A stretch of DNA of 61,595 nucleotides from a virus. Position numbers and translations under genes: made by a program. Where the stretch lies: IMG/VR virus record IMGVR_UViG_3300049749_000001, positions 1 to 61,595 of that record. One strand, 5' to 3'. Below the pieces are notes generated by a model, which saw only the letters and a list, made by a program, of their open reading frames with translations, was not told the DNA's origin and ran no database searches. Positions 1 through 55,378 of this stretch are shown here, in pieces (position 1 is the stretch's first letter; every line of letters begins with the position of its first letter).

Positions 1-127
1 GCGGCACACTTACCGTCGACGTGGAAGAGCTCTACAAGAAGGTAAGGAAACAGGCCGACGAACAGGCGCCTCCCGCGCCAACGGAAGAACCGAACCTGAA
101 AGCCGCAAGGGACTTGCTGGCAGAGCG
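1..127. repeat. Terminal direct repeat, identical to 61469-61595 (circular-closure overlap)
   Basis: The first 127 nt (gcggcacacttaccgtcgacgtggaagag...ctggcagagcg) recur exactly as the last 127 nt. The coding frame is continuous across the join. Confidence 0.95.
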
Positions 128-3100
128 TAAGGAGGTTATCGGAAACAAGACGCGAGAGGGGTACCTGAAAGGCAAGGTGCGTGCACTGGCGAAGAAAACG
201 CCCATGTCGCACGAAAAGACGGTAGCCACCCTGGATATCATCGCTACCCGACTGGACATGGACGACCTGCAGTTCATGGAAGAGGCGCCGGCACCCAAGG
301 CTGAACCCGCCGACAAGGGAGATAGGGCGACTGCTTATTTCCGGGGCGACCTAGCGGAATACACCGGCAATACCGAGACGATACATGGCCGACTGTTCTA
401 TGAAGTGAAGGTATTGGAGGGACCGGACAAAGGAAATCTCAAGGTTATAACGGACCCTCCGGGCGGAGACAAGACACCGCCCAAGCAACAGGAGAAGAAA
501 CCTGTAACGCCTCAGATCACGCCGCCCAAGGCTGAACAGGAAGAAAAGTCCGACCTACCGTCATTCACCAAAGACGAAATCCTGTTTGACGAACACGGGC
601 AGCTTCACCGTGTCGAGGGAATGGACGAGCGGGGCAATCATATTCGGGTAACGCGCAATCCGGATCAGCTATCCGAGCGCGTGATTCTGATGCGTGAGGA
701 CAGGTTCAACCGCTTGCGCCAGGAGGATAAGGAATATCGGGAAAGCATCAAGCCACCGGAGAAGAAATCAAAGTTCCATGCTGGCGACGACAGCACCAAC
801 GACGCGATAAGGGAGCTGCGCGGTCTTTCCCACGATGAGGACCAACCCGGCGATGTGGCATTGGGCAACAAGAAGTATGTGAGTTTCGATGACGCCGTAC
901 GCGTAGCCCGCGAAGGAATCGACTCAGGAGAGGTCCAGGCTGTACCGTTCCAGGTAGTGAACCGGCTTGACCTGACATTCCGCGACGTGGACCGGGTAAT
1001 AGCAGCCGCGACCACTGCTGAAAAACCAGCCGAGAAGCCCGTATTTGCCAAGGGCGAACGTGTTTCATTCCGTACTACCATCGGACGCGAGCATCAAGGG
1101 AAGGTAGCGCGGGACACTTTCGGCGTCTCGCTGGTACTGGTTAAGGCAGATGGCGACAGCAAGCCGCTTTATGTGGATCAGGACAAGATAACGCGCCTCG
1201 ATGTACCGAAACGCAGACCCGAGGCAAACCCGGATGCCGAATGGTGGAAGGGATTGACCGGACAGGGCAGAAGGCTCGTGATGCAAGCGGCGGGCGTCGA
1301 GCTTCCCGATAGTGTGTTGTGGAACTTCATCAAGGCGGAGGTCAAGGCGAAGCTGCTGGCGCACAGGGGCGCAGCCGAAGAAAAGCCCGCGACCAAGCGC
1401 AAGGCGGAAATCGTGGACAACGGGGATACCAACCCGGGCGAGTTCATAGTCCGCGAGGGCGTGCAGAATCATGGGCGCTTCTCTATTGGGGCGAAGGGCA
1501 CACCTACCGGCGTCAAGTATTTCTTTGACAACAGCGAAACGCGCGGGCTGGTTGATGAAGCCATTGCGGAATTCATCAGGGAACGCGGCGCGACCAAGCC
1601 ACCGGAAGCCGACAAGCCGCCTACCCTGGCAGAGCTCAAGCAACTACTCCTGGATTCTCAGAACAGGCTGGACAACCAGATTGTTCAGGATGACAGGCTG
1701 ATTCAAAAGATTGCCGCACTCAAGAAAGCCGTAGCGGAAGGCGAAGCAGACGAGCGCAAGGCAAAAGCCAAGAAGGACTTGGATGATGCACTGGCCGACC
1801 TGGGCGATATCTTCGGCAAGGATATCCGCAGCAGCATACTTCCCGAACAGGAGCACAAGCTAATACCTGTGCTGGCGCGGGTAATGGATGCCGCCCTGCG
1901 CATGGGTTACTACAAGTTCAAGGATGCCTCCAGGTTCGTGCTCAAAACCATCCGGGCAAAACTAGGTGACGACGTTGCCGACCAGTTGACCATAGACCAC
2001 CTGCAGGGCGCCTATATCAGCATGGCCGGAAAGTACAAGGATGAGGGCGCGGACAGCAAGAAAGACGTGATCGGCGTGGAATCCCTTGACGAGATTGGGG
2101 ACGGTGCTACGATAGACGAAACGGACACCAAGGGAGCGCAAAATGAGAACCGTAATGAGCCGGGTACGGCCCCTGGCACAACAGGCGATGGACCACTGGA
2201 AGGAGCACCTCCCGAAGAAGTACCGGGAGTTGAAGGCGGCGGGGCAACTGGAAGCGGAAGCAACGAAGGCAGCGGAGCGGACGATGGACGAACAGGCGAC
2301 GCTGATGGAACAGGGGTACCCCCCGGAGGAAGCCTGGGCAGTGGTACGGGAGAAACACCTGTTCCAGCCGGAGGAACCGGGAACCTCGGAGGAAGCACCG
2401 GCGAGCCCGCAATTCCGGGAGGCGCAACAGGCGCAGATGATGCTCAACCGGATAATCCAGGAAGAGTAGAGGCCGGCGACTATCGCATAACCGAGTCAAC
2501 GCGTCTCGGTGAGGGCGGCGCCAAGGGTAAATACAAGGGCAACGTGGCCGCTATTCGCCTGATGCGCGAATTGCTCGATTCAGGGCGCAAGGCCACCCCG
2601 GAAGAACAGGATACGCTTGCCCGCTATGTTGGATGGGGCGGAATCCCGCAAGCATTCGATAAAGACAAAGCCGATTGGTCCAAAGAACACAAAGAGCTCA
2701 AGGCACTGCTTACGCCGGAAGAATGGGAAACGGCGGTAGAGTCTACTCAGTACGCGCACTACACTTCTGAAAACGTCATCCGCTCGATGTATGACGCCGC
2801 GGCGCACCTGGGCTTCGGCGGCGGTACCATCCTTGAGCCGGGATCCGGCGTAGGCAACTTCATAGGGCTGATGCCCGACTCCATCCGCAATAAAACCCGA
2901 TTCACGGGCGTAGAGCGCGAGAGCATCGCGGGCGGAATCGCCAAGCTGCTATACCCGAACCAGAACATCCAGCAAGCCGACTTCACCGCATTCAATGCGA
3001 CGGACGGCTATTTTGATTTCGTCATCGGCAATCCGCCCTTTTCCGATACCAAGCTGACGGACATATCCGGGCGCAAGCACCTATCGGGCTTGTCCATTCA

Positions 3101-6100
3101 CAACTACTTCTTTGCAAAAGCCGTCGACATGCTGCGCGACGGCGGAATTCTGATGCAGGTTGTGACGAGCTCCTTCATGGATGCCAAGCGCGACAAGGCA
3201 CGTAACTACATCGGGGAGCGTACTACCCTGCTAGGCGCTATCAGACTGCCCAACAGCGCATTTATGGGCAATGCCGGTACCGATGTTACAACCGATATCA
3301 TCTTCCTGCAGAAGCTACCGGAATCGCAGTGGAGTTCCAAGGTGGCGAAGGAGGACGCGCAACGCTGGCAGGGATTGGGCGAAGTCTTTGACCCGCTAGG
3401 CGGGGCAAAGATACCCATCAACCAGTATTTCGTGGATCACCCGGAAATGATGCTCGGCACCATGCAGCGCGTGGGCGGGCGTTATCACGAGGATATGCCG
3501 GGACTCGTGGCGCACCCTGGCAACGTCGGGAAAATGCTGGCCAAGGCGATATCGAAACTGCCCGCGAACGTGTACGTGGATATAGCCAAGGCCAATACCG
3601 GGGCAATGGAGGGCGCACTGGCGGAAGCCATGGCCAACCTGGACGTGGAAGTAAACGGCTATTTCGTGCGCAACGACAAGCTCTACCAGCGCGTGAACGA
3701 TATTGCCGGCGAACAGCGGGCAGTGTTGCTTACGCCCAATACGCAGTGGACCGAAAAACAACAGCTCGGGGAGAACAAGCACGCACGGCTCAAGAAAGTA
3801 TCGGAACTGCGCACCACCTTGCGCCAGTTGATCAATGCGGAGCGCAACGGCGACGAGAGCATGAAGGAGCTACGCGCCAAGCTGAACGAACAGTACGACG
3901 AGTTTGTGAAGGGCGGGCTGATACACGACAGGGGCAGCATCCAGCTATTCGGTGACGATCCCGATTTCCCCTTGCTCGCCTCCCTCGAGCGGAGCTACGA
4001 CGCGGGGATTTCAGAGGGCGCGGCCAAGAAACAGGGAATCAAGCCGGTCAAGTCATCCGCGAAGAAGGCCGACATTTTCACCAAGGCAGTTGTCAGCGTG
4101 CGTGAAGCCGTGGACAAGGCGGATACGCCCGTTGATGCCCTGATGATAGCCATAGCGGAGAAAGGCCGCATCGACGCGCCATTCATCGGGGAATTACTGG
4201 GACGAGACGGCGCGGAAGTGCTGGAAGAACTGACCAAGGGCGACGAGCCGGCACTGTTCAAGGATCCAGAGAGCGGCGGATACCTGCTGCGCGACGAGTA
4301 CCTTTCAGGGAACGTGCGCAAGAAGTACGCACTGGCGCAAGCGGCAGGCATGTACGACAACGCGGACGCCTTGAAGCGCGTGATACCAGAGGATATCCCC
4401 TCGCATGAAATCGTGGGGCGCCTGGGTGCGCCCTGGGTACCTTCGGAAGTCTACGAGGATTTCATTCGCCACATGCTAGGCGACCAGACCCAGGTGCAGG
4501 TGCGGTACGTGAAGGCACTAAGCAGCTTTGCGATTCAGGTGATGGAAGCCTCCGACGTGTCCAACTGGAACACCTACGGCGTGGCCGCATCGGGCGAGGA
4601 TAGACATGCCGGCAAATCCGCGGTGGAGATTATTTCGGCATTGCTCAATAACCGCCAGATAGCGGTACGCACAAGGCCGGACCGGGAAGGACGTACGGAG
4701 CTCGTGAAGGATGCAACGGACGAGGCCAACGACAAGGCGGCAATCCTGCGCGAGAACTTTACCGACTGGCTGATGCAGGATGCGGACCGTGCGGAGAAGG
4801 TGGGGCGCATCTACAACGACACGGTAAACAACTATGTAGAGCGCAAGTTCCTGGGCAACATCCTTAAATTCCCAGGCAAGGTACCCGATAGCATCATCAA
4901 GTTCCGGCGCCACCAGACCAATGCGATCGCTCGCATATTGCAGGAAGGGCGGGCACTGCTGGACCACGTTGTGGGCAGCGGCAAGACGTTCACCGTGATA
5001 GGCGCGGCACAGGAATTGAAGCGCACCGGGCTTGCACGCAAAAGCATGATCGTGGTACCGAACCACCTTGTAAAGCAGTGGGCGGCGGATTACTACAGGC
5101 TCTACCCGGGCGCGAACATCCTGGCAGCGACCAAGAAGGACTTTGAGCGGCAGAACCGCCGTCAATTCCTGGCACGCATCGCCACCGGCAATTGGGATGC
5201 AATCATCATCGCGCACTCGTCCTATGGATTCATCAAGCCGGATCCCAATTTCGAGGAACAGTTCAACTACGAAGTCATCCGGGAAATCATGGATGCAATC
5301 GCCGAGCTCAAGGGCGACGGCGCCACCGAACCGGATCAGGCCACCAAGCGCACCATCAAGCAACTGGCCAAGATGAAGGAGAAGCTGGAACAGCGCATCA
5401 AGTCACTGCGCGACAGGAACATGGATGCCCTGCTGGACCTGGGGCAGTTAGGCGTGGATCAGATTTTCGTGGACGAGGCGCACCTGTTCAAGAATCTGAT
5501 GTACACCACCAAGATGCAGAACGTGCGCGGGCTGAACAACCCGACAGGTTCGCAGCGTGCCTACGACATGATAATCAAGACTCGGCAGATCATGGCGGCG
5601 AACGGCCACCAGCGCGGCGTCGTGTTTGCAACCGGCACGCCGATATCGAACAGCATGGCGGAAATGTATCACATGCTGAGATACCTCTACCCTGACGGGC
5701 TGAGCGACATGGGGATGGAGACTTTCGACGCCTGGGCGAACTCCTTTGCGGAAGTGGAGCAGGTGTGGATGCAGTCGCTAACGGGCGCCGGATTCAAGGC
5801 AACAAACCGCATGAGCCGGTTCGTGAATGCCGCCGACCTGTTGAAAATGTACAACCAAGTTACCGATACCGTCACGCAGCGCGACGTTCAGGAAGCGTAC
5901 CGCGAGGAAAATGACGGTAAGGAATTTCCGTTACCGAAACTCAAGGACGGCAAGCGTACGCCGGTATCGCTCAAGAAAACGGCCGCACTGGCTGACTACA
6001 TGCTTGAGATTGCATCGCGTGCCCAAGCGGTAGAACAGCGCGGACGGCCACCGGAGGAGGGCGAAGATAACGTGCTCTCGATCATGACGGACGCCCGCAA

Positions 6101-9100
6101 GGCGGCGATGGATATGCGCCTCGTGGATTTAGACGCCACGGAGCGCGACCCGGAAGGGCGCATCGCCATGGCCGGCAAGGAAGTCATCGAGCGGTACCAC
6201 AAGTACCACGATGTACTCGGCACGCAATTGATTTTCAGCGACATGGGTACCCCCCTGAAACACGCCCGGAAGGAAATGGTGGAGTACGAGGCGCTACGCG
6301 CCACCATTGCGGCGGGAGCGGACCCGGATACCATTGCGCGCGCGGAATTGGGCGACGAAGCGGCAATGACCAAGATCGAGGAAGCGGAGAAAGCCCAGGA
6401 GACACTGGACGGCAAGGGGCAGGACTGGCTTGATGCGATCAAGGCCGCGATTCGCGGCTTTTCCATCTATGACGATATGCGGGCGTACCTGATGGAGAAC
6501 GGCGTACCGGAAAAAGAGATTGCCTTTATCCATGACTACAACACGGACGACCAGAAGGCGGCACTGTTCGCCGCGGTCAACGCCGGCAAAATCCGCATCC
6601 TGCTAGGGTCCACTGCCAAGATGGGCGCCGGTACCAATGTTCAGCAACGTCTCGTGGCGATTCACCATATCGACGTGCCCTGGAAACCCTCTGATATCGA
6701 ACAGCGCGAGGGGCGCATCATCCGCCAGGGCAATCTCTTTGCTACGCCACCAACCGAGGACGCGCCTAATCCGCTCTACAACCCGGATTTCGAGGTAGAG
6801 ATACTGGCCTACGCTACCCAGGACTCGCTGGACCTGTTCATGTGGCAGGTACAGGAAAAGAAGCTCGGCATGATCAACCAGCTACGCGAGGGCAAGGTAG
6901 GGCGCGAATTCGACAATGCGTTCGAGGAAATGCAAATGTCGGCCGGCGAAATGCAAGCCGCGGCAACGTCCAACCCGTACCTGATGGAAGAGATTGTACT
7001 TAAAGACAAGATCAAGAAATTGGAACGGCAACAGAAAAGCCATGTGGCGCAGGGCAACGACCTTATCACGCGGGAGAAGAAGGCACGCAAGGCGATAGCC
7101 GAACTGCCAGCGACCATCAAGGCGATGGAGAAGGTAGACAGCGAGGCGCGGGCTTACCACGCGGCGATGGAAGCGCGGGAAGTGCCCGCTACCATCGACG
7201 GCAAGCAATACACCAAGCGAGCCGCAGCGACCGCGTACATACGCGACATACTGGACGATCATCAAGAGCGGTACGAGAGGCAGGAAGCCGACAATTCCAT
7301 AAGGAAGCTGCAAGCCACCATAGACAATGCCCTGAACAAGACTGACAACGAGCCAAAGCTGGACGAAACGCTTTCCAAGAGCAAGCTCGCAAAGCCTATC
7401 AAGATCGACGGCAAGGATTACGTCAGTATCAGCGCGATTTCAGACCGCATCCGCATGATCTACGGTGACGCGGACCCCATTGCGTTCGAGCGCGGGGACC
7501 AGACCCTCTACACCCGCAGCGCCATCCGAGACGCCATCCGCGACGACTACGCCCGGGCGGTGGAAGAAGAAACCACCGTGCCGATGGGATCGTTCGGCAA
7601 TTTCGAGGTTTCGGTACTCGTCAAGAAAGCGCGGGACAAGAAAATGGAAATCGAGATTTACGCGCCGGCGCAACTCTCGGACGGTACCGACCTGGGATCA
7701 TATTATGTGGGCGAGTACCACGACAAGGTAGCGGCGCTACCCGATATCGACAAGTGGATCCGGGCGGCAAGCACGCACGCGCACGGCGTCGAGTGGTCCC
7801 TGAACAACTCACGCCGGGAACTGGAACAAGCGCACAAGACGATCAACGACCTTGGCAGGATGCCGGAGCGGCAGGAGTGGGCGGGCAAGGAAGAACTGGC
7901 GCAAGCCCGCGAGCGGTACCGCGAAGTGCTCAAGCTGATTGTCGCCCTGGCCAACCCGGCGCCGACAGTCAAGCCGGATGGAAAATACCATGTGATGCGG
8001 AAAGCGGAAGCGGCGCAAGCGATGGGCGGACAGCCCACGGATGAAGCAAAGGCCGACCCGCGGTTCTACGTCTGGACAGAAGGCATGATCCTGGTAGACG
8101 GTTCCAAAGACGGTTTCCCGACAGAGTTTGATGCGGGCGTATGGCTGGCCAGAAAGCAGGGCAAGCCCATTGCGGTACCGAGCCATACGGAAGCACGCCA
8201 CGGGCAAGGCATAGCGGGCATTACCAAGCTGCAGGACCGAACGCGAGCGGAAGAGCCGGCATTTTCCCGCCAACCCAAAAAAGCCACCCCCCCAGGTGGC
8301 TTTTCTGCTTCTGCGCTACCGAAAACGCACACCCAGGCAATCGTTGACGCCATCCGCGGAAAGTGGAAGAACGCGCCGGAGGTTGTCATCGTTGATGACA
8401 TGAACGATCCGGCCATACCGGGAGCCGTGCGCAAGGAGAACGAGCGCCAGCTATCCCAGGGCGCCAAGGGCGAGCCGGAGGGCTTCATTGCGGGCGGCAA
8501 GGTCTATGTAGTCGCATCGCAAATGCGAGCGCCTGGGGACGTTGTACGCGTGCTGCTGCATGAAAGCCTCGGACATTTCGGGTTGCGCGGGCTCTACGGC
8601 GCAGGACTGGACAAGATACTCCGGCAGATTGCCGCATTGCGGCGGAAAGAGGTGGAAGCCAAGGCACGCCAGTACGGCCTGGACATGAAGGTGGAGAAGG
8701 ACAAGCTCAGGGCGGCGGAGGAAGTGCTGGCGGAAATGGCACAGACCAACCCGCAAAGCGGCTTTGTCCAGCGTGCAATAGCGGCGATTCGGACATGGTT
8801 GCGCGAGAACATCGAATACTTCAAGGATATGAAGCTATCCGATGGCGAAATCATCAACAACTACCTGATACCCGCGCGGGAGTTCGTGCAACGGGGCGCA
8901 CCGCAAGGCGGGCAGGCAAGCGGCGTTACCGCATTCCAGCGCGTTTGGCACGGTACCCCGCATATCTGGCCACCGGAACCAGGTTTCGCGCATGGACGGC
9001 CACGGCTGGACATGATCGGAAGTGGCGAGGGTGCGGCGGCGTTTGGATGGGGATTCTATACCGCCGAATCCAGGCGCATAGGCGAGGAATATCACCGGAT

Positions 9101-12100
9101 ACTGTCATCGCGTAACCCCGTGATACTGAGGGCTGGCCTGAATGCCATCGTTCCATCGAACGAAATAGAAGAATACGCATTAGGCAGATTGCTGAGAGAG
9201 CTCAGATACGCGCAAGACGACACGGCGATAAACAGGGCGATCAAGAGGGTAATCCTGGATGCACGCAGCTCACGCAAAAAGGGGATGAATGCACCGGGCA
9301 AGCTGGCGCTTGAAGATGGAATCGCATCCTATGTCGAAAAACTATGGGATCAGCGCCTTACCCTGCAACGCGAAGGCGGGGCGCTATACCACCTGGACAT
9401 TCCAGATTCCGCATTGCCGTACCTGCTTGATTGGGACAAGCCGCTAGGCGAACAGCCACCCAAGGTCAAGGCCGCACTGAACATAGTACGGGCACGCCTT
9501 GAAAGCGTGGACTTGCTCGAGGACTACCTGGACGCAAAAAACGCCGATTGGGAAGAACTGACAGGCGCGGAGCTGTACCTGCAAATCCTGGACCGGGCAG
9601 CAACGGATGACGCTCTGCCCTACGGAGTTCCGGGCATTGAAGAAGCATTAACCTATAACAAGACCAAAAAGGCTGTATCGCTCTATCTCACATCGTTGGG
9701 CATAGTCGGAAACCGCTACCTTGACGGCGTTTCACGCAAGAAGGGGGAGGGCAACTACAACTACGTGATATGGGATCAGGAAGTACTCGACAAGATAGCC
9801 CTCCTGGAGCGCAACGGTACCGCCCTCGATGCGATGCGCGAAGCGGAGGAAGCGTTTTCCCGCAATTCCCGAAACGGGACAGAACGGGAAACACAGACCG
9901 ATACGCCAGAGTTCAGGAAGTGGTTCAAAGGTAGCAAAGTAACGGACGAGAACGGGAAGCCGTTGCCTATGGTTCACGTTTCCCCAAAGGGGAATATCGA
10001 AGTGTTTAAGCCGGGATCAGATGGCGGCGTTTGGTTTAGCCCTCTGCATGACACGACAGAGGCCGATATTGTTGCCAGCTACGGCAACGACTTTATAGAA
10101 AACCCAAACCCGGATGAATACCCTGACGTGGCAGTGGGCGCGACCTACTACCCTGTTTATCTGAAAGCGAACAACCCGGCAACGGGCAAAGACGCTGACG
10201 ACTTTTATAACGGAAAAGTTTCGGCCAAGGCATTGCAGAAAAAAGGGTATGACGGCGTTACCTGGGATGACGGCGTTACCGTTGTATTCAAACCCGAACA
10301 AATCAAATCAGCCATAGGCAATAACGGCGCATTCGACGCTACCAACCCGGATATCAACTTTTCCCGTTCGACGCCCAACCCGAAAGTAGAGGCGGCTAAA
10401 TCCTGGCTGGACGGCGTTACCGATTCCCTCATCTACAACTTCGTTGACCGCTTCAAGCCCCTGCGCGATATCCAGAAACGCGCCGGCGCGGTACCCGAAC
10501 GGCAGGACGCATCGCTTGCAGAAGAGCGGTATTCAGGAATGGTGCGGGCTCGTACCGATGATTTTCACAACGACCTCCGGGATCCACTGTTAAAAGCGAT
10601 ACACGATGGGAAGCTGGACTACGATCAGGTAGAGGAATACTTGCACGCATTGCACGCGCCTTCCCGCAATGCCCACATGAAGTCAATCAACCCGACTGCA
10701 GAAGAACTGCAAGCCCGCCTCGATGCGCTATCGAAGGAGCGCGACGAGCTCACAAGGAACAGGGATGTGAAGCGGTACATCAAGCTGCGCCGGGAGCAGC
10801 GCCAAGCCCAGGCCGATATCGACGAGGTTATCGCGGATGAATCGCTAGGCCGGATGATTGCGCAGGAAATGACAAAATTGCGCAAGGTGCCCGCGGTTAA
10901 AAGCTACGTGGATGCTACCGAGAAGCTGCGAGCACTGCGCGACGTGAAGCCGTTCGATGGTGACAATACCGCACTCTCCGGCATGAGCAACGCGGAAGCG
11001 AAGGCAGTCATCGAAAAAGCACGCAAGGCGGGCAAAATTCGGGCACTGGAGAAGGTTTCTGCCATCGTTGATACCATCACAGCCCAAACCCGGCAAATCT
11101 ACGTAGAGGCCGGTTTAGAGAAGGCGGAGACTATCGAGGGGTGGGAATCCCTTTATGAGCATTACGTCCCCCTGCATCGGGATGAAGTGGGCGGAAACAC
11201 CAATCCCCCCATCGGCCAGGGCTACAGCATACGCGGGCGTGAAAGCAAACGCGCCACCGGATCCACGAAAGAGGTAACGGACATACTGGCTCACATCGTT
11301 GCATCGCACGAGGCGGCAATCGTGCGGGCGGAAAAGACGAAGGTGGACCTTGCCCTGTATCGCTTCGCCATGTCGCACCCGGACCCGGATGTATGGACCC
11401 TGGACGCGGCACCCAAACTCAGGATGGTGGATCCGACCTCCGGCGTGGTTGCCGAACGCATCGACCCCCTCTATAAGAACCGGGCAAACGTCCTAACGCT
11501 GAAAATCGGCGGGGAAGAGCACACAATCACTTTCACCGAGAGCAACCCGGAAGCCATGCGGCTCGCCGTATCGCTTAAGAACCTGGGAATGCAGGAGCTC
11601 GGGCAAGTAACGCAGGTAATCGGAAAAGTAACCCGGTTTCTCGCAACCATGTCCACCTCTGCAAACCCGGTTTTCGTTGCCCGCAACTTCCTGCGCGACA
11701 TTCAAACCTCGTTCGTGAACCTGTCCGATACCGAACTGGCCGGGATGAAAAAGCAGGTTTTTGCCGATTTGCCATCCGCGATTAAAGGCATGTGGAACAT
11801 GTCACGCGGGGATCGTAAATCGAAGTGGGCAAAGTACGCGCATCAATTCCGCGCCGCCGGCGGGCAAACCGGATGGATGGAGCACTACGGCAGTATTGGC
11901 GAACGTGCCGATGGGTTGCGCAAGCAGCTTGCAGCGATGGACCCGACCAAGATCAACTTGGCCAAGCAGACCGCGCGCGCGTGGTGGGAGCTCATCGAGG
12001 ACGCGAACGGCGCCGTCGAAAATGGCGTGCGGCTTGCCGCTTTCGTCAACGCACGCAAGGCCGGTCTATCGGAAGGCAAGGCGGCGGCACTGGCGAAGAA

Positions 12101-24527: not shown

Positions 24528-26147
24528 TCAGGCTTTCGCGGTTTGTCGTTGTTCCTCCGTTGCGATGAACAGGTCAATCTCTCGCAATACCCCTGCGAGC
24601 TCGCGCACATTGCCGTATTTGTGGCGGAAGAACCCCAGGTCGTGCATTGCCACTGCAAGCAGGGCGCCGTTACTGCCCACGGGTTTCAGGTTACGCGCCG
24701 CTATCGGCCTTGGTGAGAGTGCGGGGGAGGGCGCCGGCGTTGCCACTGGCGCGGGGGTTGCCACTTCTACGGGCTTTGCCGCTGCCGCGATTTCAGCCTG
24801 GGCGCGTTCCCTTGCCAGCCGGTCCGCTTCCGCCTGTATGCGTTGACGCTCCGCTTCCCGTTTTTGCGCTTCCTGCTGCTTGTGCTGCGCAATGCGGTTC
24901 TGAATCACCATCTGAAAATCATCATCCGCCTTGTACGCAAGCTGCTGCATGTCGGATAGCAGGAAGGTGTAATCGGCCGCATGTTCCTTTGCCCACGCAA
25001 TGCGCCTACGAACGCCTTGGGCGATGCCATCCGTCGTTATCTTGGCACTGGCGAGTGTCGAAGATATGGCGTCATCCAAGCTGGCCAGCGTGCGCTTGTT
25101 CTTGATTGCGCCCTGGAAGTCGGGTTGCGGATAAACCAGCCGAACCGGGAAAAGCTCGGTTTCAAGATTGGTCACATGAACGGCAAAGTCAACCCGCGCC
25201 TTGCTGATGAAACTGTTCCGGATCACGTCCTTTTGCGTCTTGATCATCTTGTCCAGGGTGAGGCGCTTGCCGCGCAACTGGTCGCGGACGTAATCAATGG
25301 TGATCATCACGTCCTCGATGCTTGCGGTTTGCGATATCACCGCTGCTTTCGTCAGCTCCAGTTCCTTCTCAGCCTTCTCGCAGAACTTGACGGTTTCCTC
25401 CGCGTACGCAAAATCCTCGTCGGTTTTGAGGTCCGTCTTGATACAAGCGAGGAAGGTTTGGGCGGATTTGGTGAAAGCGGGAAGATTGCTCGTGACAACC
25501 TCCCCGCGTATTTGAATCGCCAGCGCCGGAAGTTGCCGGATCGCGGCGACTTGCGGCTTCTCTGGATGAACTACGGGCACGTATGCGGCCAAGTCGTTAG
25601 AAAACTGAAACCAACCTGCGCGGATACGCTCGAACCATGCCGGATCCGGCAATACCTCGAGGTAAACCAAGTTTTCGCGGGTACCGTCAGAAACCGTGAA
25701 AATCAGCTTCTCGGCGCCCGTTACCATGAGAACCTGCTGGCATTGGGGTATATGCTCGTTTGGCAGGATGCCATCGCGCACGCTCGCCGCCAGTATCCGG
25801 TTCCATTGCTTATGCTCGAATGCAATGGTCTCCATCATGTTCAAGCCGTCGCACGAGGCGGAATAGATGCCATCGGAGCACGTAACCGGGTAGAGGTCAT
25901 CCCCGATCATTTGCTCGATGATGGGACGCGCCAGTGCTTCAACGGCGTGGCCAAGGTCAAGGATGTTCTTCTGCATCCAGTCCGAGAACTCCTTTGCGGT
26001 GCCCGTGTGCTTCATGTGCAGCAACTCGGTACGCTTGATGTGCGGCGAGAGGCCGAGCATAGGCGCGGCTTCGCTTGCGCCGTAGTGCTCAAGCCGGAAT
26101 TGATGCCATTCCGGGCTTCCTTGGGTGAAATTGTGAATAATCATCAT
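24528..26147 (-). CDS. YqaJ/lambda-Exo-type recombination exonuclease fused to a roughly 340-aa C-terminal extension
   Basis: The N-terminus QGSPEWHQFRLEHYGASEAAPMLG...SASCDGL...IAFEHKQW is the YqaJ PD-(D/E)xK pattern. The extension is coiled-coil rich and includes an A/P-rich linker PVEVATPAPVATPAPSPALSP. Confidence 0.8.
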   Translation of the reverse strand: MMIIHNFTQGSPEWHQFRLEHYGASEAAPMLGLSPHIKRTELLHMKHTGTAKEFSDWMQKNILDLGHAVEALARPIIEQMIGDDLYPVTCSDGIYSASCDGLNMMETIAFEHKQWNRILAASVRDGILPNEHIPQCQQVLMVTGAEKLIFTVSDGTRENLVYLEVLPDPAWFERIRAGWFQFSNDLAAYVPVVHPEKPQVAAIRQLPALAIQIRGEVVTSNLPAFTKSAQTFLACIKTDLKTDEDFAYAEETVKFCEKAEKELELTKAAVISQTASIEDVMITIDYVRDQLRGKRLTLDKMIKTQKDVIRNSFISKARVDFAVHVTNLETELFPVRLVYPQPDFQGAIKNKRTLASLDDAISSTLASAKITTDGIAQGVRRRIAWAKEHAADYTFLLSDMQQLAYKADDDFQMVIQNRIAQHKQQEAQKREAERQRIQAEADRLARERAQAEIAAAAKPVEVATPAPVATPAPSPALSPRPIAARNLKPVGSNGALLAVAMHDLGFFRHKYGNVRELAGVLREIDLFIATEEQRQTAKA

Positions 26148-27157
26148 TGCTCGCCTCTAAGTGAATGCCATGAATCAATCTCAAACTTCTGTTCCTCGCT
26201 TAGCAAAACGCCCTTGCTCTCAATCATCGCAATCAGGGCGGCGGGGGTTTTCTTGTTTTCGTCGATGAGTTTCTTCCAGCCGTCTTTCTTGGCGTTGAAT
26301 GCCTCGGCGGTGAACATGGGGTAAACGGGCGCCGGTCCCTCAATCGGTTCCTGATGCGGTTCCTCCTGTATCTCGCCGGTTTCCTCGTCCACGACGGATG
26401 GCGGCACATAGTCGTTATTCACCGCGTGCTCGATGGTCAAGCCCTGAGAGCCGATTTCGGCTGCGTCGTTGAGCGAGATTGCCGCGTTCATTTCCGGGGA
26501 GGCTGGCATGTACTTAAGCACTTGCAGGAGCACGACCTTTCGGGCGTACATTTCCATGTTTTCGTGGGCGTAATGCTTGGTGCCTACCTTGTTGTAGCGG
26601 GCTAGGTGGATGCGCACGCGATTCATGCTCCATACCTCTATAACCGGCCACTCCGAACCTTTCACGCGGCCTACGGCGTACACATACATCAGCCTGTTGA
26701 CGTCGAACTCATCGCCCGGTTTGTGGAGGATGAATGGACGGTCCCCGAGCGCATAGTTGAACTCGTCGCCTTCAAACACTGCGCCGGTCCAGACTGTTGC
26801 ATTGCCGGCACGGTTAACCAGATCGACAAGCCCTTTCCAGCCCGGTACGAACTGGCACTCAGTGATTTTCTTCCACTGTCCGTCTATAAGCTGCTTGCGT
26901 TCGTACGGGATGAGATAGGACCGTCCCAGGGTATTCGGCTCCAGTCCCAACTGGCTCGCCTGGATGACTGCGGCAAAGACGCTGCGCGGGTCGCATTGGC
27001 CAAGTTTGGGATTCTGGCGAAAGGCGGTAAGTGCGATACGGGCAAATCGTTCCGCCTTCAAGTGGGTAGGGAGTGCTCTATGAAGCTCGCCCTTGTACTG
27101 TTCCAGCATCGCCGGAAAATTCCGGGGCGATGTTTCTTTCATTGTTGCGGTATTCAT
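26144..27157 (-). CDS. recT: RecT-family single-strand annealing protein
   Basis: PRSVFAAVIQASQLGLEPNTLGRSYLIPY...CQFVPGWKGLVDLVNRAG. Start moved to ATG 27157 after GGAGAG. Confidence 0.85.
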   Translation of the reverse strand: MNTATMKETSPRNFPAMLEQYKGELHRALPTHLKAERFARIALTAFRQNPKLGQCDPRSVFAAVIQASQLGLEPNTLGRSYLIPYERKQLIDGQWKKITECQFVPGWKGLVDLVNRAGNATVWTGAVFEGDEFNYALGDRPFILHKPGDEFDVNRLMYVYAVGRVKGSEWPVIEVWSMNRVRIHLARYNKVGTKHYAHENMEMYARKVVLLQVLKYMPASPEMNAAISLNDAAEIGSQGLTIEHAVNNDYVPPSVVDEETGEIQEEPHQEPIEGPAPVYPMFTAEAFNAKKDGWKKLIDENKKTPAALIAMIESKGVLLSEEQKFEIDSWHSLRGEQ

Positions 27158-27177
27158 GGTCTCTCCTGTTGTTGTTG

Positions 27178-27465
27178 TTAAAGGTACTCGTTTGCCGCTT
27201 TGTGCTTCGCGGCCGCAAGGCAAACGGCTTCGCGCAAGGTTCCGGCGCTAGTCTTTCCCTCGTCGGTGTACAGCGTGAACCCGCCCCTGTATTGCGGGGT
27301 AGGGCGGTTATAAACGGCTTGGTCGCAATACTCAGCGAGCCAATCGAGTGTTTCCGTATCGTTCAGGTCAAGCGGGGCAAGTTCCTGCTCTGCCTTCGCC
27401 CGTGCCCGTATTTCATAAAGCCTGGGTGTATCTATGCCGACCTCCTGCAATGCCAGCGCAGCCAT
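27178..27465 (-). CDS. Hypothetical early protein (95 aa), first gene of the leftward operon
   Basis: ORF 27178..27522. Start moved to ATG 27465, preceded by AGGAGA. Confidence 0.55.
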   Translation of the reverse strand: MAALALQEVGIDTPRLYEIRARAKAEQELAPLDLNDTETLDWLAEYCDQAVYNRPTPQYRGGFTLYTDEGKTSAGTLREAVCLAAAKHKAANEYL

Positions 27466-28995: not shown

Positions 28996-30060
28996 ATGGT
29001 TGGACCTATCGAAACATATCCCCTCAATCACTGCTACGCAGGTGATAGCCGCGTCACGCTCAAGCTCCTTGAGCCTTGCAGCGTGCAAGTTTGTGTCACG
29101 TCACCCCCCTATTACGGGTTGCGTTCGTATCTTCATGATACTCATCCTTATAAAAACCTTGAAATCGGTGGGGAAAAGACGCCGGATGAGTACGTCGCGG
29201 CGCTGGTCGAGGTTTTCCGGGAGGTTTGGCGCGTGTTGCGGGACGATGGCACGCTCTGGCTGAACCTGGGAGATAGTTACGCCGGCACAGGCAAGAGCGG
29301 CGGGGGAGCTCAGGGCAGGCGATGGGAAGAGTGCGGGATGGATACTACCGGAGCTCGAGGAGGCAAATGGATGCCGCCACCAGCAGGGCTCAAGCCGAAA
29401 GACTTGATCGGTATCCCCTGGCGCGTGGCATTTGCACTACAGGCGGATGGCTGGTACCTGCGGCAAGACATAATCTGGCACAAGCCCAATCCCATGCCGG
29501 AGAGTGTCACAGACCGATGCACCAAGGCACACGAGTACCTGTTCCTGTTGAGCAAATCCCCCAGGTACTACTTCGATAACGAGACGATAAAAGAAGCGTG
29601 CGCCCTGCAGGAATACAAGACGCCGGATGGATGGGATACCAGCAAGGGGGAGGGCGGGCACGGCCCATTTCACAAGAATGGCCGCGAGAAAGGCAAAACC
29701 GACAAGCAACGCGGGCATGGCCGCATCTATACCGGGTTTAACGAGCGATACGACGCCAAAGAAGCGGCGCAGCAGTTAACCGGCACTCGCAACAAACGGA
29801 GTGTTTGGACGATCCCAACGCGCCCGTATGCACAAGCCCACTTCGCAACATACCCCCCTGAACTCATCGAACCCTGCATTTTGGCCGGCACTCGCCCAGG
29901 CCAGATCGTACTTGACCCCTTTTTTGGATCCGGCACCACTGGCGAAGTAGCGCAACGCCTGGGGCGCCGGTGGATTGGCTGTGAACTTAACCCTGAGTAT
30001 GCCCTTTTACAAAATGAACGGACCCGCCAAGACGGGTTTGCCTTGGAGACGATGGAATGA
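28996..30060 (+). CDS. Stand-alone DNA methyltransferase (N4/N6 class, beta order)
   Basis: Motif IV VCVTSPPYYGLRSY comes before motif I LDPFFGSGTTGEVAQRLGRRWIGCELNPEY. Confidence 0.85.
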   Translation: MVGPIETYPLNHCYAGDSRVTLKLLEPCSVQVCVTSPPYYGLRSYLHDTHPYKNLEIGGEKTPDEYVAALVEVFREVWRVLRDDGTLWLNLGDSYAGTGKSGGGAQGRRWEECGMDTTGARGGKWMPPPAGLKPKDLIGIPWRVAFALQADGWYLRQDIIWHKPNPMPESVTDRCTKAHEYLFLLSKSPRYYFDNETIKEACALQEYKTPDGWDTSKGEGGHGPFHKNGREKGKTDKQRGHGRIYTGFNERYDAKEAAQQLTGTRNKRSVWTIPTRPYAQAHFATYPPELIEPCILAGTRPGQIVLDPFFGSGTTGEVAQRLGRRWIGCELNPEYALLQNERTRQDGFALETME

Positions 30061-53350: not shown

Positions 53351-53677
53351 ATGGCGATCACACGGGCAGGATCGAGCGGCTTTGCAGCAAGGCCGCAAGG
53401 CAGCTTCGCCGGTAAAGGCGTAGTCGTCGACGTATTCTTGCCCGAAACCGGCCCAACGACAGGCAAGAAGCCGGGGATTCCGGCAGACGCGCCGGCATGG
53501 CTCAAGACCATGTTGGAAATATTGACCGGACGGCGCGGCAACCAGATTGCGATCCCTGCGCCGCGCGTGCTCACCTTTTCCGCAGTGCCGACAAAAGAAG
53601 AATGCGAAGCCCTCTATGCCTTGGTCAACGAGGTCCGGGATACACAAGCAAAAATCATTACGAGGTTCGATTCGTGA
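53351..53677 (+). CDS. Hypothetical virion-module protein (108 aa)
   Basis: Closed ORF. Its start abuts the previous stop. Confidence 0.55.
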   Translation: MAITRAGSSGFAARPQGSFAGKGVVVDVFLPETGPTTGKKPGIPADAPAWLKTMLEILTGRRGNQIAIPAPRVLTFSAVPTKEECEALYALVNEVRDTQAKIITRFDS

Positions 53678-54303
53678 ACGAAAGATTAGTGAAACTGCTT
53701 CTGGACAATTTCGGCAAGCCAATCACCGATGTTGTGGCGGCTGACATTTGCTTTGCGGCGGCGCAGCTTTCAACGCTGGTACCGCCCGAACACATCGCCA
53801 TGCTTCCCCGCGAATACCGGAAGGACGCTGTATTCGGCGTGGAGCGGATGGAGGACATTGCCGCCGAAGTAAAGCCGCTACACCTGGAACACTGGAGGGA
53901 AACCGAAGTACACCGGCACGGGCTCACCTTCAACATGGATTACGAGACGCTTATCCGCTACGAACAGGCGGGGCGCTTTGTCCTGTTCACGCTCAGAAGC
54001 GGCGGCGGAATGCTGGTAGGCAATTGCGGGATGTACCTGGACCGCAGCGTACATACCCAAACCTTGATTGCAACCGAGGACACGCTCTATTTATTGCCGG
54101 AAGCGCGACGTGGCAGGACCGCCGTGATGTTCGTGAAATACGTGGAGGACTCGCTGCGCAAGTTGGGCGTGAAGGAGATTGATATCACCGTCAAGACAGT
54201 GAACAAGGCAGCGCGATTTTTCACGATGCTCGGATACAAGCATGTCGAAAACGGATTAACCAAAGTACTGGAGGCAGAAAATGTGCAGCAAGAAACCGCC
54301 TAA
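53674..54303 (+). CDS. GNAT-fold N-acetyltransferase-like protein (209 aa)
   Basis: LYLLPEARRGRTAVMFVKYVEDSLRKLGVKEIDITVKTVNKAARFFTMLGYKHVE fits the GNAT motif A/B layout. The GTG start overlaps the upstream stop (GTGA). Confidence 0.6.
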   Translation: MNERLVKLLLDNFGKPITDVVAADICFAAAQLSTLVPPEHIAMLPREYRKDAVFGVERMEDIAAEVKPLHLEHWRETEVHRHGLTFNMDYETLIRYEQAGRFVLFTLRSGGGMLVGNCGMYLDRSVHTQTLIATEDTLYLLPEARRGRTAVMFVKYVEDSLRKLGVKEIDITVKTVNKAARFFTMLGYKHVENGLTKVLEAENVQQETA

Positions 54304-55378
54304 ACCCGACCCGCTCATTGGAGAAGCCGCAAGAGATAACGCCGCTCTCGCCAGGGAACAGCACGAGCTCGCCAAGGAACAGCTTGCCTGGGAGAAGGAC
54401 CGCGCCATCAAGCAGGATCCGCTCATCGAGAAAGTGGTTAACCAGCAGATTGCAAGCGGAGACGCCAACGCGGCGCGCGCGGAATCGCAATGGCAGATAT
54501 ACCGAGACCTGTTCGCCCCTATCGAGGAGCGCATGGTCAAGGATGCCAACGAATTCGACTCGCCGGAGCGCAAATCGCGCATGGCAGCGGAAGCCGGCGC
54601 GGACGTGGGGAGAGGCTACGACGCCGCGGCAGATACGAACCAGCGGCAGATGGAGCGCATGGGCATTAACCCGAACTCCGGGCGGTTTCAGGCAATGAAC
54701 AACGAAATGAGCATCAACCGCGCCAAGGATACGGCGGGCGCCATGAACAAGGCACGGCGCGACACTGAGCTCCTGGGCATGTCGCAACGGCAAAGCGCGG
54801 CAAACTTCGGGCGAAATATGCCCAATACCGGGCTTGCCGCGGATTCGGCCGCATTGACTGGCGGGAGCAACGCCATAGGCAACCTGAACGCGGGCAACGC
54901 GGCCAGGAACGCCAGCATGAACACCGCTCAGAACTGGTTCGGCGGGTCTCAGGGCGCCAACAGCAGCGCCGCCAATATCATGAACGCGCAGTACGGCAAC
55001 CAGCTTAACGCCTGGAATCAGAACGAGCAGAACAAGGCCGCATCCATGTCGGGGCTCGGTTCGCTGGCCGGCATGGGCGCGGCAATGCTCATGCGCAAGG
55101 GCGGCGTGATCAGGAACAACAGGCCGCACAGGCCGGCGTATTCAAAGCCGCGCTACAACTATGCCGCGGGCGGTCTCGTTCGGGGACCGGGCACGGGTAC
55201 CAGCGATTCCATTCCGGCAGTCATCGAGGGCGTGCAACCGGCGCGGCTATCGAACGGAGAGGCGGTACTGAATGCCGAGGCAGTGCAACTCGTGGGGGAG
55301 GATTTCGTGCACCGCATCAACTCAGTGGGGTTGTCGAGCTTGCCACCACGTAACCAGATTCCAGAAGGGGAGGGTTGA
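54281..55378 (+). CDS. Internal virion/ejection protein candidate (365 aa, N/Q/G/A-rich)
   Basis: Low-complexity middle region and C-terminus LVRGPGTGTSDSIPAVIEGVQPARLSNGEAVL. GGAGG RBS. It lies upstream of the giant gene. Confidence 0.55.
   Translation: MCSKKPPKPDPLIGEAARDNAALAREQHELAKEQLAWEKDRAIKQDPLIEKVVNQQIASGDANAARAESQWQIYRDLFAPIEERMVKDANEFDSPERKSRMAAEAGADVGRGYDAAADTNQRQMERMGINPNSGRFQAMNNEMSINRAKDTAGAMNKARRDTELLGMSQRQSAANFGRNMPNTGLAADSAALTGGSNAIGNLNAGNAARNASMNTAQNWFGGSQGANSSAANIMNAQYGNQLNAWNQNEQNKAASMSGLGSLAGMGAAMLMRKGGVIRNNRPHRPAYSKPRYNYAAGGLVRGPGTGTSDSIPAVIEGVQPARLSNGEAVLNAEAVQLVGEDFVHRINSVGLSSLPPRNQIPEGEG

Follow-up and report, generated by a model that had tools for sequence, protein, structure and literature searches.

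The virus genome IMG/VR record IMGVR_UViG_3300049749_000001 was analysed from position 1 to 61,595 (the window, that is, the whole stretch of 61,595 nucleotides), and a giant gene that crosses the ends of this window probably encodes a polyvalent virion protein of the DarB-like kind, 5,877 aa in length, in a short-tailed phage. The phage resembles the Bcep22 (Lessievirus) and Shiga toxin (Stx) phage (Sepvirinae) groups, in which such a gene lies at the end of the structural block. From the N-terminus to the C-terminus, the protein comprises a conserved N-terminal module, a module of ~165 aa with a tandem repeat, a C5-cytosine methylase domain, a DarB-type core, an HExxxH module, an insert-bearing ART-PolyVal-like domain (ART, ADP-ribosyltransferase), a canonical ART-PolyVal domain, and a conserved C-terminal module. 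Several unrelated effector domains in one chain, adjoining late structural genes, and families specific to the polyvalent class are all present. The polyvalent-protein concept had been proposed in an earlier sequence-only reading of this DNA, and it is borne out by ART-PolyVal and LPD38 matches above cut-off and by the place of the gene at the end of the structural block. The enzyme assignments of that reading were checked by profile searches, which support the methylase, the helicase, and ART-PolyVal and add LPD38, and all the motifs it quoted are found where it had placed them. The Pfam assignments given here lie above the gathering cut-off of each family.

The window begins and ends with the same 127 bases, an exact direct repeat (1-127 = 61469-61595). 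Because the ends overlap exactly over 127 bp, the contig is circular, and the window is a complete circular phage genome with a true length of 61,468 bp once the overlap is removed. An exact overlap of 127 bp is the typical length for a circularised contig assembled at k=127. On the + strand, a single frame is open from position 3 to the stop codon at 13236-13238. The GTG at 21 is merely the first start-like codon in the window and is not the real start, since positions 3..20 contain no in-frame stop. At the other end, a frame is open from 57073 to the end of the window and, with the overlap removed, runs exactly into the frame at position 3 without a stop. The real gene is therefore 57073..61468 joined to 1..13238 (+), with the 5' part (57073..61468, +) coding for aa 1 to the first base of codon 1466, and the 3' part (1..13238, +) for the rest of codon 1466 to the stop. 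The whole gene has 17,634 nt, accounts for 28.7% of the genome, and encodes 5,877 aa with a mass of 645.5 kDa. A gene of 21..13238 is ruled out by the missing upstream stop and the end overlap; the sequence-only reading, which had placed the start near 21, covered just the C-terminal 75% of the protein, and the N-terminal 1,472 aa sit at the other end of the window. Residue numbers refer to the full protein, so that residue n of that reading is n+1472 here. The ATG at 57073 abuts the TAA of the preceding gene (TAAATG), an arrangement of start-stop coupling, and base composition and skews are alike on both sides of the junction. Moreover, two independent metagenomic proteins, P0337 (5,358 aa) and P0329 (4,989 aa), align collinearly with the wrapped open reading frame (ORF) in both its halves, which argues against a false join.

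The DarB-type core extends over aa 2272-3919 and consists of a methylase, a conserved inter-domain part, and a helicase, with the catalytic motifs intact. The best PHROG of the giant protein is phrog_10089, 'DarB-like antirestriction' (E=0). The N6-adenine DNA methyltransferase (aa ~2385-2572; 2757..3320, +) matches the Pfam families Eco57I (43.8 bits) and MTS (26.6 bits), and has motif I, EPGSGVGNF, at 2835-2861 and motif IV, NPPF, at 3030-3041. The inter-domain part (aa ~2700-3090; 3702..4874, +) matches residues 1999-2348 of Bcep22 gp75 (E 1.7e-31); the sequence-only reading had treated 3330-4890 as a spacer, and this region instead belongs to the conserved core. The superfamily 2 (SF2) helicase has an SNF2-like segment (aa ~3098-3709) and, together with the post-helicase region, occupies 4896..7361 (+). 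It matches ResIII (43.7 bits), SNF2-rel_dom (37.6 bits), and Helicase_C (29.4 bits), and contains GSGKT at 4974-4988, DEAH at 5472-5483, and QREGRIIRQGN at 6702-6734. As the SNF2-rel_dom score covers just profile positions 159-198 of 290, the safe wording for this predicted domain is an SF2 helicase with an SNF2-like segment. By BLASTP, P1 DarB is collinear with the methylase (DarB 91-276, 27% identity, E 6e-17) and with both helicase lobes (E 5e-14 and 4e-7), and the post-helicase region aligns to it as far as aa 3919. The methylase-helicase combination of the P1 DarB type, recognised earlier from motifs, is thus supported by both the PHROG match and the collinear alignment.

The N-terminal quarter of the protein contains a second and different methylase behind several modules that are shared with other giant proteins. 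The conserved N-terminal module (aa ~60-400; 57250..58272, +) is rich in Gly and Ala and is located at the N-terminus of giant proteins: 523 representative proteins match it at E<=1e-3 and 162 at <=1e-30, and almost all of them are 2,000-5,800 aa long, with the hit near their own N-terminus. It has no match in Pfam (alignment, E<=1), PHROG, or the PDB (hidden Markov model, HMM). A recurrent module of ~165 aa (aa ~520-685; 58630..59127, +) lies at a similar position in eight other giants with 58-72% identity. It is followed by a tandem ~100-aa repeat (aa 680-778 and 812-910; 59110..59802, +), the copies of which are ~40% identical; P0329 has one copy. The C5-cytosine DNA methyltransferase-like domain (aa 1013-1228; 60109..60756, +) has LFDLTGEW, PCTDFAGSG with the catalytic PC, and ENPVGR, that is, motifs I, IV (PC), and VI (ENV) together with a profile match. 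It is assigned to phrog_757 'DNA methyltransferase' (E 4.9e-42) and scores 22.1 bits with PF00145, which is borderline against the cut-off of 22.0. The domain is short (~216 aa), and its target-recognition region may be reduced. Between this domain and the core, aa 1229-2186 give a single match of 67 residues, to a 'structural protein' of Pseudomonas phage 8P, and a low-complexity linker of Gly, Pro, Thr, and acidic residues (aa 2187-2286; 2163..2462, +) lies just ahead of the core. In Pfam searches with 700-aa tiles at E<=1, no family was found for aa 1-1010, 1229-2400, and 3830-4780. In the domain map, aa 1229-2186 and 3920-4220 stand unassigned. NCBIfam gave weak partial matches only, to methylases and helicases of defence systems, and PDB chains searched with the complete protein sequence gave nothing below E 0.02.

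Behind the core, the HExxxH module (aa 4223-4443, ~220 aa; 8271..8933, +) is a candidate metallopeptidase. It is discrete and mobile, with 36 homologues of 43-74% identity that stand beside varied domains of polyvalent proteins. In an alignment of 21 sequences, H115, E116, H120, and A166-A167-E168-E169 are invariant, the A-A-E-E lying ~50 residues downstream of the motif. HESLGH...EEVLAE may resemble the M49 dipeptidyl-peptidase III signature. The AlphaFold model (mean predicted local distance difference test score, pLDDT, 83.1) shows a helix, a strand, a helix, two strands, the long HExxxH helix, and a later EE helix, which is the order of elements given for the zincin core (PMC5512222, section 8). 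According to the same section, one set of polyvalent-protein metallopeptidases bears an HEXXXH motif. The invariant HExxxH...EE residues, the predicted order of elements, and this published clade make a metallopeptidase likely but unproven. The zincin-like module of the sequence-only reading is retained in part: HESLGH is present (8559-8576) in a predicted zincin-like topology, but its H-E-x-x-x-H spacing is one residue longer than the canonical zincin HExxH, and no database match accompanies it. The sole zincin in the noise of the database searches was a clostridial collagenase (collagenase T), at E 2.6.

The WHGTPH module (aa 4447-4750; 8943..9854, +), with WHGTPH itself at 8946-8963, had been noted from its motif, and it proves to be a divergent ART-PolyVal-like domain with helical inserts. 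A profile built from the six closest sequences matches at least 2,586 proteins at E<=1e-3, most of which are stand-alone phage proteins of ~400 aa lacking Pfam annotation. The module itself has no match in Pfam or the PDB (HMM; Foldseek of the AlphaFold model, E<=0.001). Its AlphaFold model (pLDDT 78.8) has a confident strand core and long helical inserts. In an unedited hhalign comparison with the ART-PolyVal alignment, the probability was 93% (E 3e-7) over the first 40 columns, which include VYHGT, G.Y, and A..Y. After the inserts were cut by hand, it increased to 95.7% (E 1e-8) over 108 columns, with the caveat that the cutting was guided by conservation. A Foldseek search of the model against BFVD, a database of predicted viral structures, gave 22 matches at E<=1e-3, including proteins with the UniProt names 'ART-PolyVal-like domain-containing' (E 1.6e-13) and 'PolyVal ADP-Ribosyltransferase' (E 2e-5, target TM 0.62). 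A reading as a PARP or diphtheria-toxin-like H-Y-E enzyme was narrowed to 'ART-PolyVal-like', as the catalytic triad is not assignable. As a separate observation, three metagenomic phage contigs have a stand-alone gene of this family, coding for 418 aa (L002:6001-7257, L003:2698-3954, and L004:1867-3123), as the second gene upstream of that for the large terminase, with a gene of ~55-86 aa between the two. The canonical ART-PolyVal domain follows (PF18760, aa 4781-4910; 9945..10334, +), with a full-length match (1-140 of 140) of 45.4 bits against a cut-off of 31.2, in agreement with the ART-like module that had been placed at ~9895-10372. By these profile and structure comparisons, the giant protein has two predicted ART-type domains in tandem.

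The conserved C-terminal module (~950 aa, aa 4922-5877; 10368..13235, +) matches phrog_14770, 616, and 10691 and is the most widely shared part of the giant protein. It is matched by 365 GenBank phage records at 30-31% identity, from Vibrio, Stx-converting and other Escherichia/Shigella, Ralstonia, Burkholderia, and Bacillus phages. Stx phage 86 gp35 (2,783 aa) and a protein of 3,002 aa from Methanosarcina virus MetMV both terminate in the module, and in Bcep22 gp75 it is close to the end. Within it, the LPD38 domain (PF18857, aa 5570-5765; 12312..12899, +) scores 129 bits against a cut-off of 27 (E 3e-37). A hydrophobic segment of ~20 aa followed by an acidic run (12222..12320, +; ADDDDDGEND at 12291-12320) keeps its position in 27 of the 27 aligned homologues that span it (20-70% identity), while its sequence diverges; the segment may be a membrane helix or a buried helix. 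An HMM search of the module against the PDB gave noise only. The sequence-only reading had described this part as a ~950-aa region with hydrophobic stretches and an Asp run but no nameable motif, and had supposed that such spacers could hide new effectors. The hydrophobic segment and the Asp run are present, but the region is no spacer: it is a conserved terminal module and not cargo. Of the supposed hidden effectors, one unnamed module turned out to be ART-like, and ~1,500 aa are still unassigned.

The two terminal modules occur together in other giant proteins. Among the 150 best proteins with a matching N-terminal region, 141 have the N-terminal module near their N-terminus, and at least 15 of these 141 also end with the C-terminal module, with other domains between. 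Because the ends are conserved while the middle varies, a role of the ends in loading or ejection is suggested, by analogy with proteins whose ends have such roles. In P1 DarB, the N-terminal 30 residues are a capsid-targeting signal (PMC9024508), and in the N4 virion RNA polymerase gp50, injection is the task of the N-terminal region and encapsidation that of the C-terminal one (PMC5512222, section 5).

From the same pattern, the protein might be mainly a structural or ejection protein. Its ends would then work inside the head or close to the portal, unfold through the short tail, and insert into the cell envelope to aid DNA entry, with the enzymes as exchangeable passengers of lesser weight. 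This explanation is possible, yet we regard it as rather unlikely. The terminal modules are conserved across lineages with a wholly different middle, and the gene always closes the structural block. Bcep22 gp75 has only the core and the C-terminal region in common with the protein, Stx86 gp35 and the MetMV protein share only the C-terminal module, MetMV having the HExxxH and WHGTPH modules in addition, and the position of the hydrophobic segment and acidic run is fixed in all of the spanning homologues. On the other hand, the hydropathy is borderline for a membrane helix (19-residue mean 1.0-2.3), no solved ejection protein is similar in the HMM search against the PDB, and the phage has a separate internal virion protein (phrog_511) as well as a lysozyme gene. 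A structural role is, moreover, compatible with a polyvalent effector protein, so that it shifts weight only.

Short motifs mark the borders of the C-terminal cassettes. A-F-S-R (F4220; 8262..8270, +) stands before the HExxxH module, A-F-Q-R (F4444; 8934..8942, +) between the HExxxH and WHGTPH modules, A-F-S-R (F4751; 9855..9863, +) between the WHGTPH and ART-PolyVal modules, and NPDINFSR (F4919; 10359..10367, +) between the ART-PolyVal and C-terminal modules. Such a junction motif may be a site of processing, or it may just mark the conserved edge of a module. In the set of close homologues, FSR was seen 81 times against 9 expected (9-fold), in many of them ~90-97 residues before HExxGH and in many ~124 after it. 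In distant giant proteins, the enrichment is only 2.7-fold. NPDIxFS was seen 14 times against ~0.05-0.4 expected and is absent from the large distant giants; as it is enriched in the close lineage only, it was ruled out as a general polyvalent linker. At the DNA level, three of the four junctions use TTT TCC CG[C/T]. F-S-R might also be a recombination site in the DNA, but the TTTTCCCG[C/T] shared by three of the four is too short to tell from codon usage.

In a self-processing polyprotein, the HExxxH domain of the chain itself would cut the A-F-S-R junctions, either in the head or after ejection, and free the enzymes. Four F-[S/Q]-R motifs bound exactly the four C-terminal cassettes, the over-representation and recurrent distances of FSR and the excess of NPDIxFS are consistent with such cleavage, and autoproteolysis by metallopeptidase domains of polyvalent proteins was proposed by Iyer et al. 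(PMC5512222, section 8). However, the homologues are related to each other, and the enrichment may just reflect conserved module ends. The motif is also partly structured in the AlphaFold models (within the HExxxH model it has a strand at residues 15-17, and within the ART-like model it makes up part of strand 1), its enrichment fades in the distant giants, NPDIxFS is missing from the large ones, and the putative peptidase lacks a fold match. Self-processing is therefore improbable in our estimate. A still broader proposal is a general delivery chassis of short-tailed phages, in which the chain would be loaded and ejected by means of its N-terminal and C-terminal modules, exchangeable cassettes would lie between them, and here the HExxxH peptidase would cut the A-F-S-R junctions to free the effectors; this is speculative and slightly less probable again.

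For the DarB-like polyvalent virion protein, the course of infection is modelled on P1 DarB, the N4 virion RNA polymerase, T4 Alt, and the virion proteomics of Bcep22 and JC1. The giant protein would be made late, loaded into the head in few copies via one conserved terminus, and would exit the head with the DNA at infection. The methylase-helicase core might then shield the incoming DNA from restriction, as DarB does against type I systems, and the extra C5 methylase might broaden this protection. The two ART-type domains could modify host targets, as in T4 Alt, and the HExxxH domain, if it is a peptidase, could cut its own chain or host proteins. A host-killing or competitor-targeting toxin carrier similar to a polymorphic toxin, in place of an anti-restriction device, is very unlikely. 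ART domains and metallopeptidases are common as toxin modules, and the variable cargo lies between conserved delivery ends. Nevertheless, the DarB-type methylase-helicase is the largest and best conserved enzymatic block, both it and the added methylase fit DNA protection, and no small immunity-like gene in the same orientation follows, since the downstream genes are on the opposite strand.

Several observations weigh against the assignment to DarB-like polyvalent virion proteins. Virion presence, ejection, and activity of the giant protein are extrapolated from relatives. At the sensitivity of tblastn, no GenBank phage contains the N-terminal module, and it is missing from Bcep22 gp75, Stx86 gp35, MetMV, and P1 DarB as well. 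Identity to P1 DarB is only 20-27%, and tblastn of the P1 proteins DarA, Hdf, DdrA, DdrB, and Ulx against the window gave nothing better than E 0.25. As no homologues of these accessory Dar proteins were found in the window, the packaging route must differ from that of P1. The flanking genes have no BLAST similarity to those of Bcep22. For the HExxxH module, the peptidase assignment is without a match in Pfam (E<=10), PDB-HMM, and Foldseek against the PDB (E<=0.001). Lastly, the circular junction is covered by one assembly alone. Two further assemblies have identical neighbouring genes but break off just ahead of the giant gene, so that they neither confirm nor contradict the junction. The break may mark a hotspot of strain variation. 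An assembly artefact, in which the ORFs 57073..61595 and 3..13238 would be different genes each cut by a contig end, could draw on this single coverage and on the stop of the other assemblies near 55.6 kb, but it is extremely unlikely given the exact overlap of a length usual for k=127 circularisation, the fusion of the two frames without a stop, the agreement of composition and skews, the presence of both halves in the same order in one polypeptide in P0337 and P0329, and a size of 61.5 kb with a full gene set, close to the 60-64 kb of Bcep22, JC1, and Stx phages (PMC9144972).

The giant gene is the last of the late structural block, in which the genes for the large terminase (start 36097), portal (37155), major capsid protein (40594), tail fibres (43847 and 45512), lysozyme (48153), internal virion protein (phrog_511, 48590), and a virion structural protein (54281) are on the same strand as the giant gene. 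An acetyltransferase-like gene (phrog_1249, 53497-54300) is located inside this block and on its strand, two genes upstream of the giant gene; at roughly the same place, Bcep22 has a gene for phosphoadenosine phosphosulfate (PAPS) reductase. A terminator-like hairpin with a 13-bp stem and a T-rich tail (13250-13288, +) begins 12 nt past the stop of the giant gene and separates it from the convergent - strand gene 13289-13666, the genes downstream of the giant gene being on the opposite strand. A stand-alone DNA methyltransferase gene (28996-30057; phrog_67, E 2e-76) is also present. Taken with the two in the giant protein, it brings the phage to three DNA methylase domains. Other genes include a serine invertase or recombinase (phrog_125; 15672-16301, -), a RecE/RecT recombination pair (24531-27223, -), and a primosomal protein gene outside the listed structural block. 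No tRNA gene was found in the genome and no tyrosine integrase among the ORFs scanned. Since the named homologues come from Nitrosospira, Aquincola, Comamonas, Acidovorax, and Burkholderiaceae assemblies, the host is probably a betaproteobacterium. There is no near-identical relative in a megablast search against phages and plasmids, which returned a 37-nt match to the darB-like genes of Bcep22 and BcepMigl and ~100 nt to helicases of Gordonia plasmids. Separately, the capsid protein and the 365-aa virion protein of this phage have identical counterparts in Logan SRR35533260_7735 and in a second independent assembly; the two assemblies end ~200 nt past window position 55378 (near 55.6 kb), just ahead of the giant gene.

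By way of giant polyvalent virion proteins, many phages are believed to introduce ready-made enzymes of counter-defence together with their DNA. To our knowledge, almost none of them has been tested beyond P1 DarB. The protein described here is unusually large, exceeding in length each of the 150 best related representatives retrieved, and would unite in a single chain two DNA methylases of different type with a helicase, a pair of ART-type domains, and a putative peptidase. The analysis also has by-products: giants with unrelated cargo have their N-terminal and C-terminal modules in common, at least 2,586 phage proteins without annotation form one very large family whose domain is ART-PolyVal-like, and the F-S-R junction, which recurs, is a possible mark of processing sites. 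None of these by-products upsets current understanding. The protein offers modest leads in its size, its shared end modules, and its junction motif, and the class itself will not surprise a specialist.

Bcep22 and related phages: The closest annotated relatives are Bcep22 gp75 (4,602 aa), JC1 gp69 (4,515 aa), and the 'DarB-like antirestriction' proteins of Lessievirus and Ralstonia podophages. As in the present phage, the giant gene of Bcep22 is the last of the structural block, with a terminator annotated after gp75 and genes on the opposite strand beyond it. In JC1, mass spectrometry recovered 51 unique peptides of gp69 from virions purified on caesium chloride (PMC9144972). Bcep22 gp75 is homologous in the core (33% identity over ~1,575 columns) and in the C-terminal region (27%). 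In contrast, the present protein is 1,275 aa longer, and about half of it is unrelated to gp75: its N-terminal ~2,270 aa and the effector string of aa 3,830-4,925 have no BLAST counterpart there, the N-terminal module is not detected, and the C5 methylase region lacks a counterpart by either BLAST or phmmer. The GC content is 57% here and 65-66% in Lessieviruses.

P1 DarB: P1 DarB (2,255 aa) has the N6-adenine methylase and the SF2 helicase in the same order as the giant protein. It is carried inside the P1 head and guards the phage DNA against type I restriction (PMC9024508). Judged by similarity to the modules described here, it has no ART, HExxxH, C5 methylase, or LPD38-type C-terminal module. 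P1 is also a myovirus, and its DarB needs DarA, Hdf, DdrA, DdrB, and Ulx.

Stx phage 86 and MetMV: Stx phage 86 gp35, other 'LPD5 domain-containing' proteins of Sepvirinae (~2,780 aa), and the MetMV protein have the same C-terminal module at their very end (E 1e-84). In contrast, Stx86 gp35, the Vibrio, Ralstonia, and Bacillus homologues, and MetMV show no DarB core by similarity and no N-terminal module, and they carry other cargo. The 3,002-aa MetMV protein (L007:3582-12590) has HExxxH, WHGTPH, and C-terminal modules. Since the same three modules are present in it, these cassettes are common to bacterial and archaeal viruses.

N4 gp50 and T4 Alt: These are functional analogues only, being large or enzymatic proteins that are packaged in the head and injected with the DNA; no sequence relationship to them was detected, nor was one looked for directly. 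The roles of the two end regions of N4 gp50 offer a parallel to the conserved ends around a catalytic middle in the giant protein, and T4 Alt is a packaged ADP-ribosyltransferase. Both differ from the present case in their cargo and phage groups.

Polyvalent proteins: The class described by Iyer, Burroughs, Anand, de Souza, and Aravind in 2017 (PMC5512222) is alike in having many effector domains per polypeptide and a place among late phage genes, and its own Pfam families ART-PolyVal and LPD38, the latter listed there as a phage-only domain, are present in the giant protein. No Pfam model matches either the HExxxH or the WHGTPH module, and the main text of that work makes no mention of the N-terminal module, the terminal 'bookend' layout, or the F-S-R junction motif. 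The polyvalent concept, ART-PolyVal, LPD38, and the HEXXXH peptidase clade are already published there. What is new is a very large member of the polyvalent class with a domain combination that was previously unlisted.

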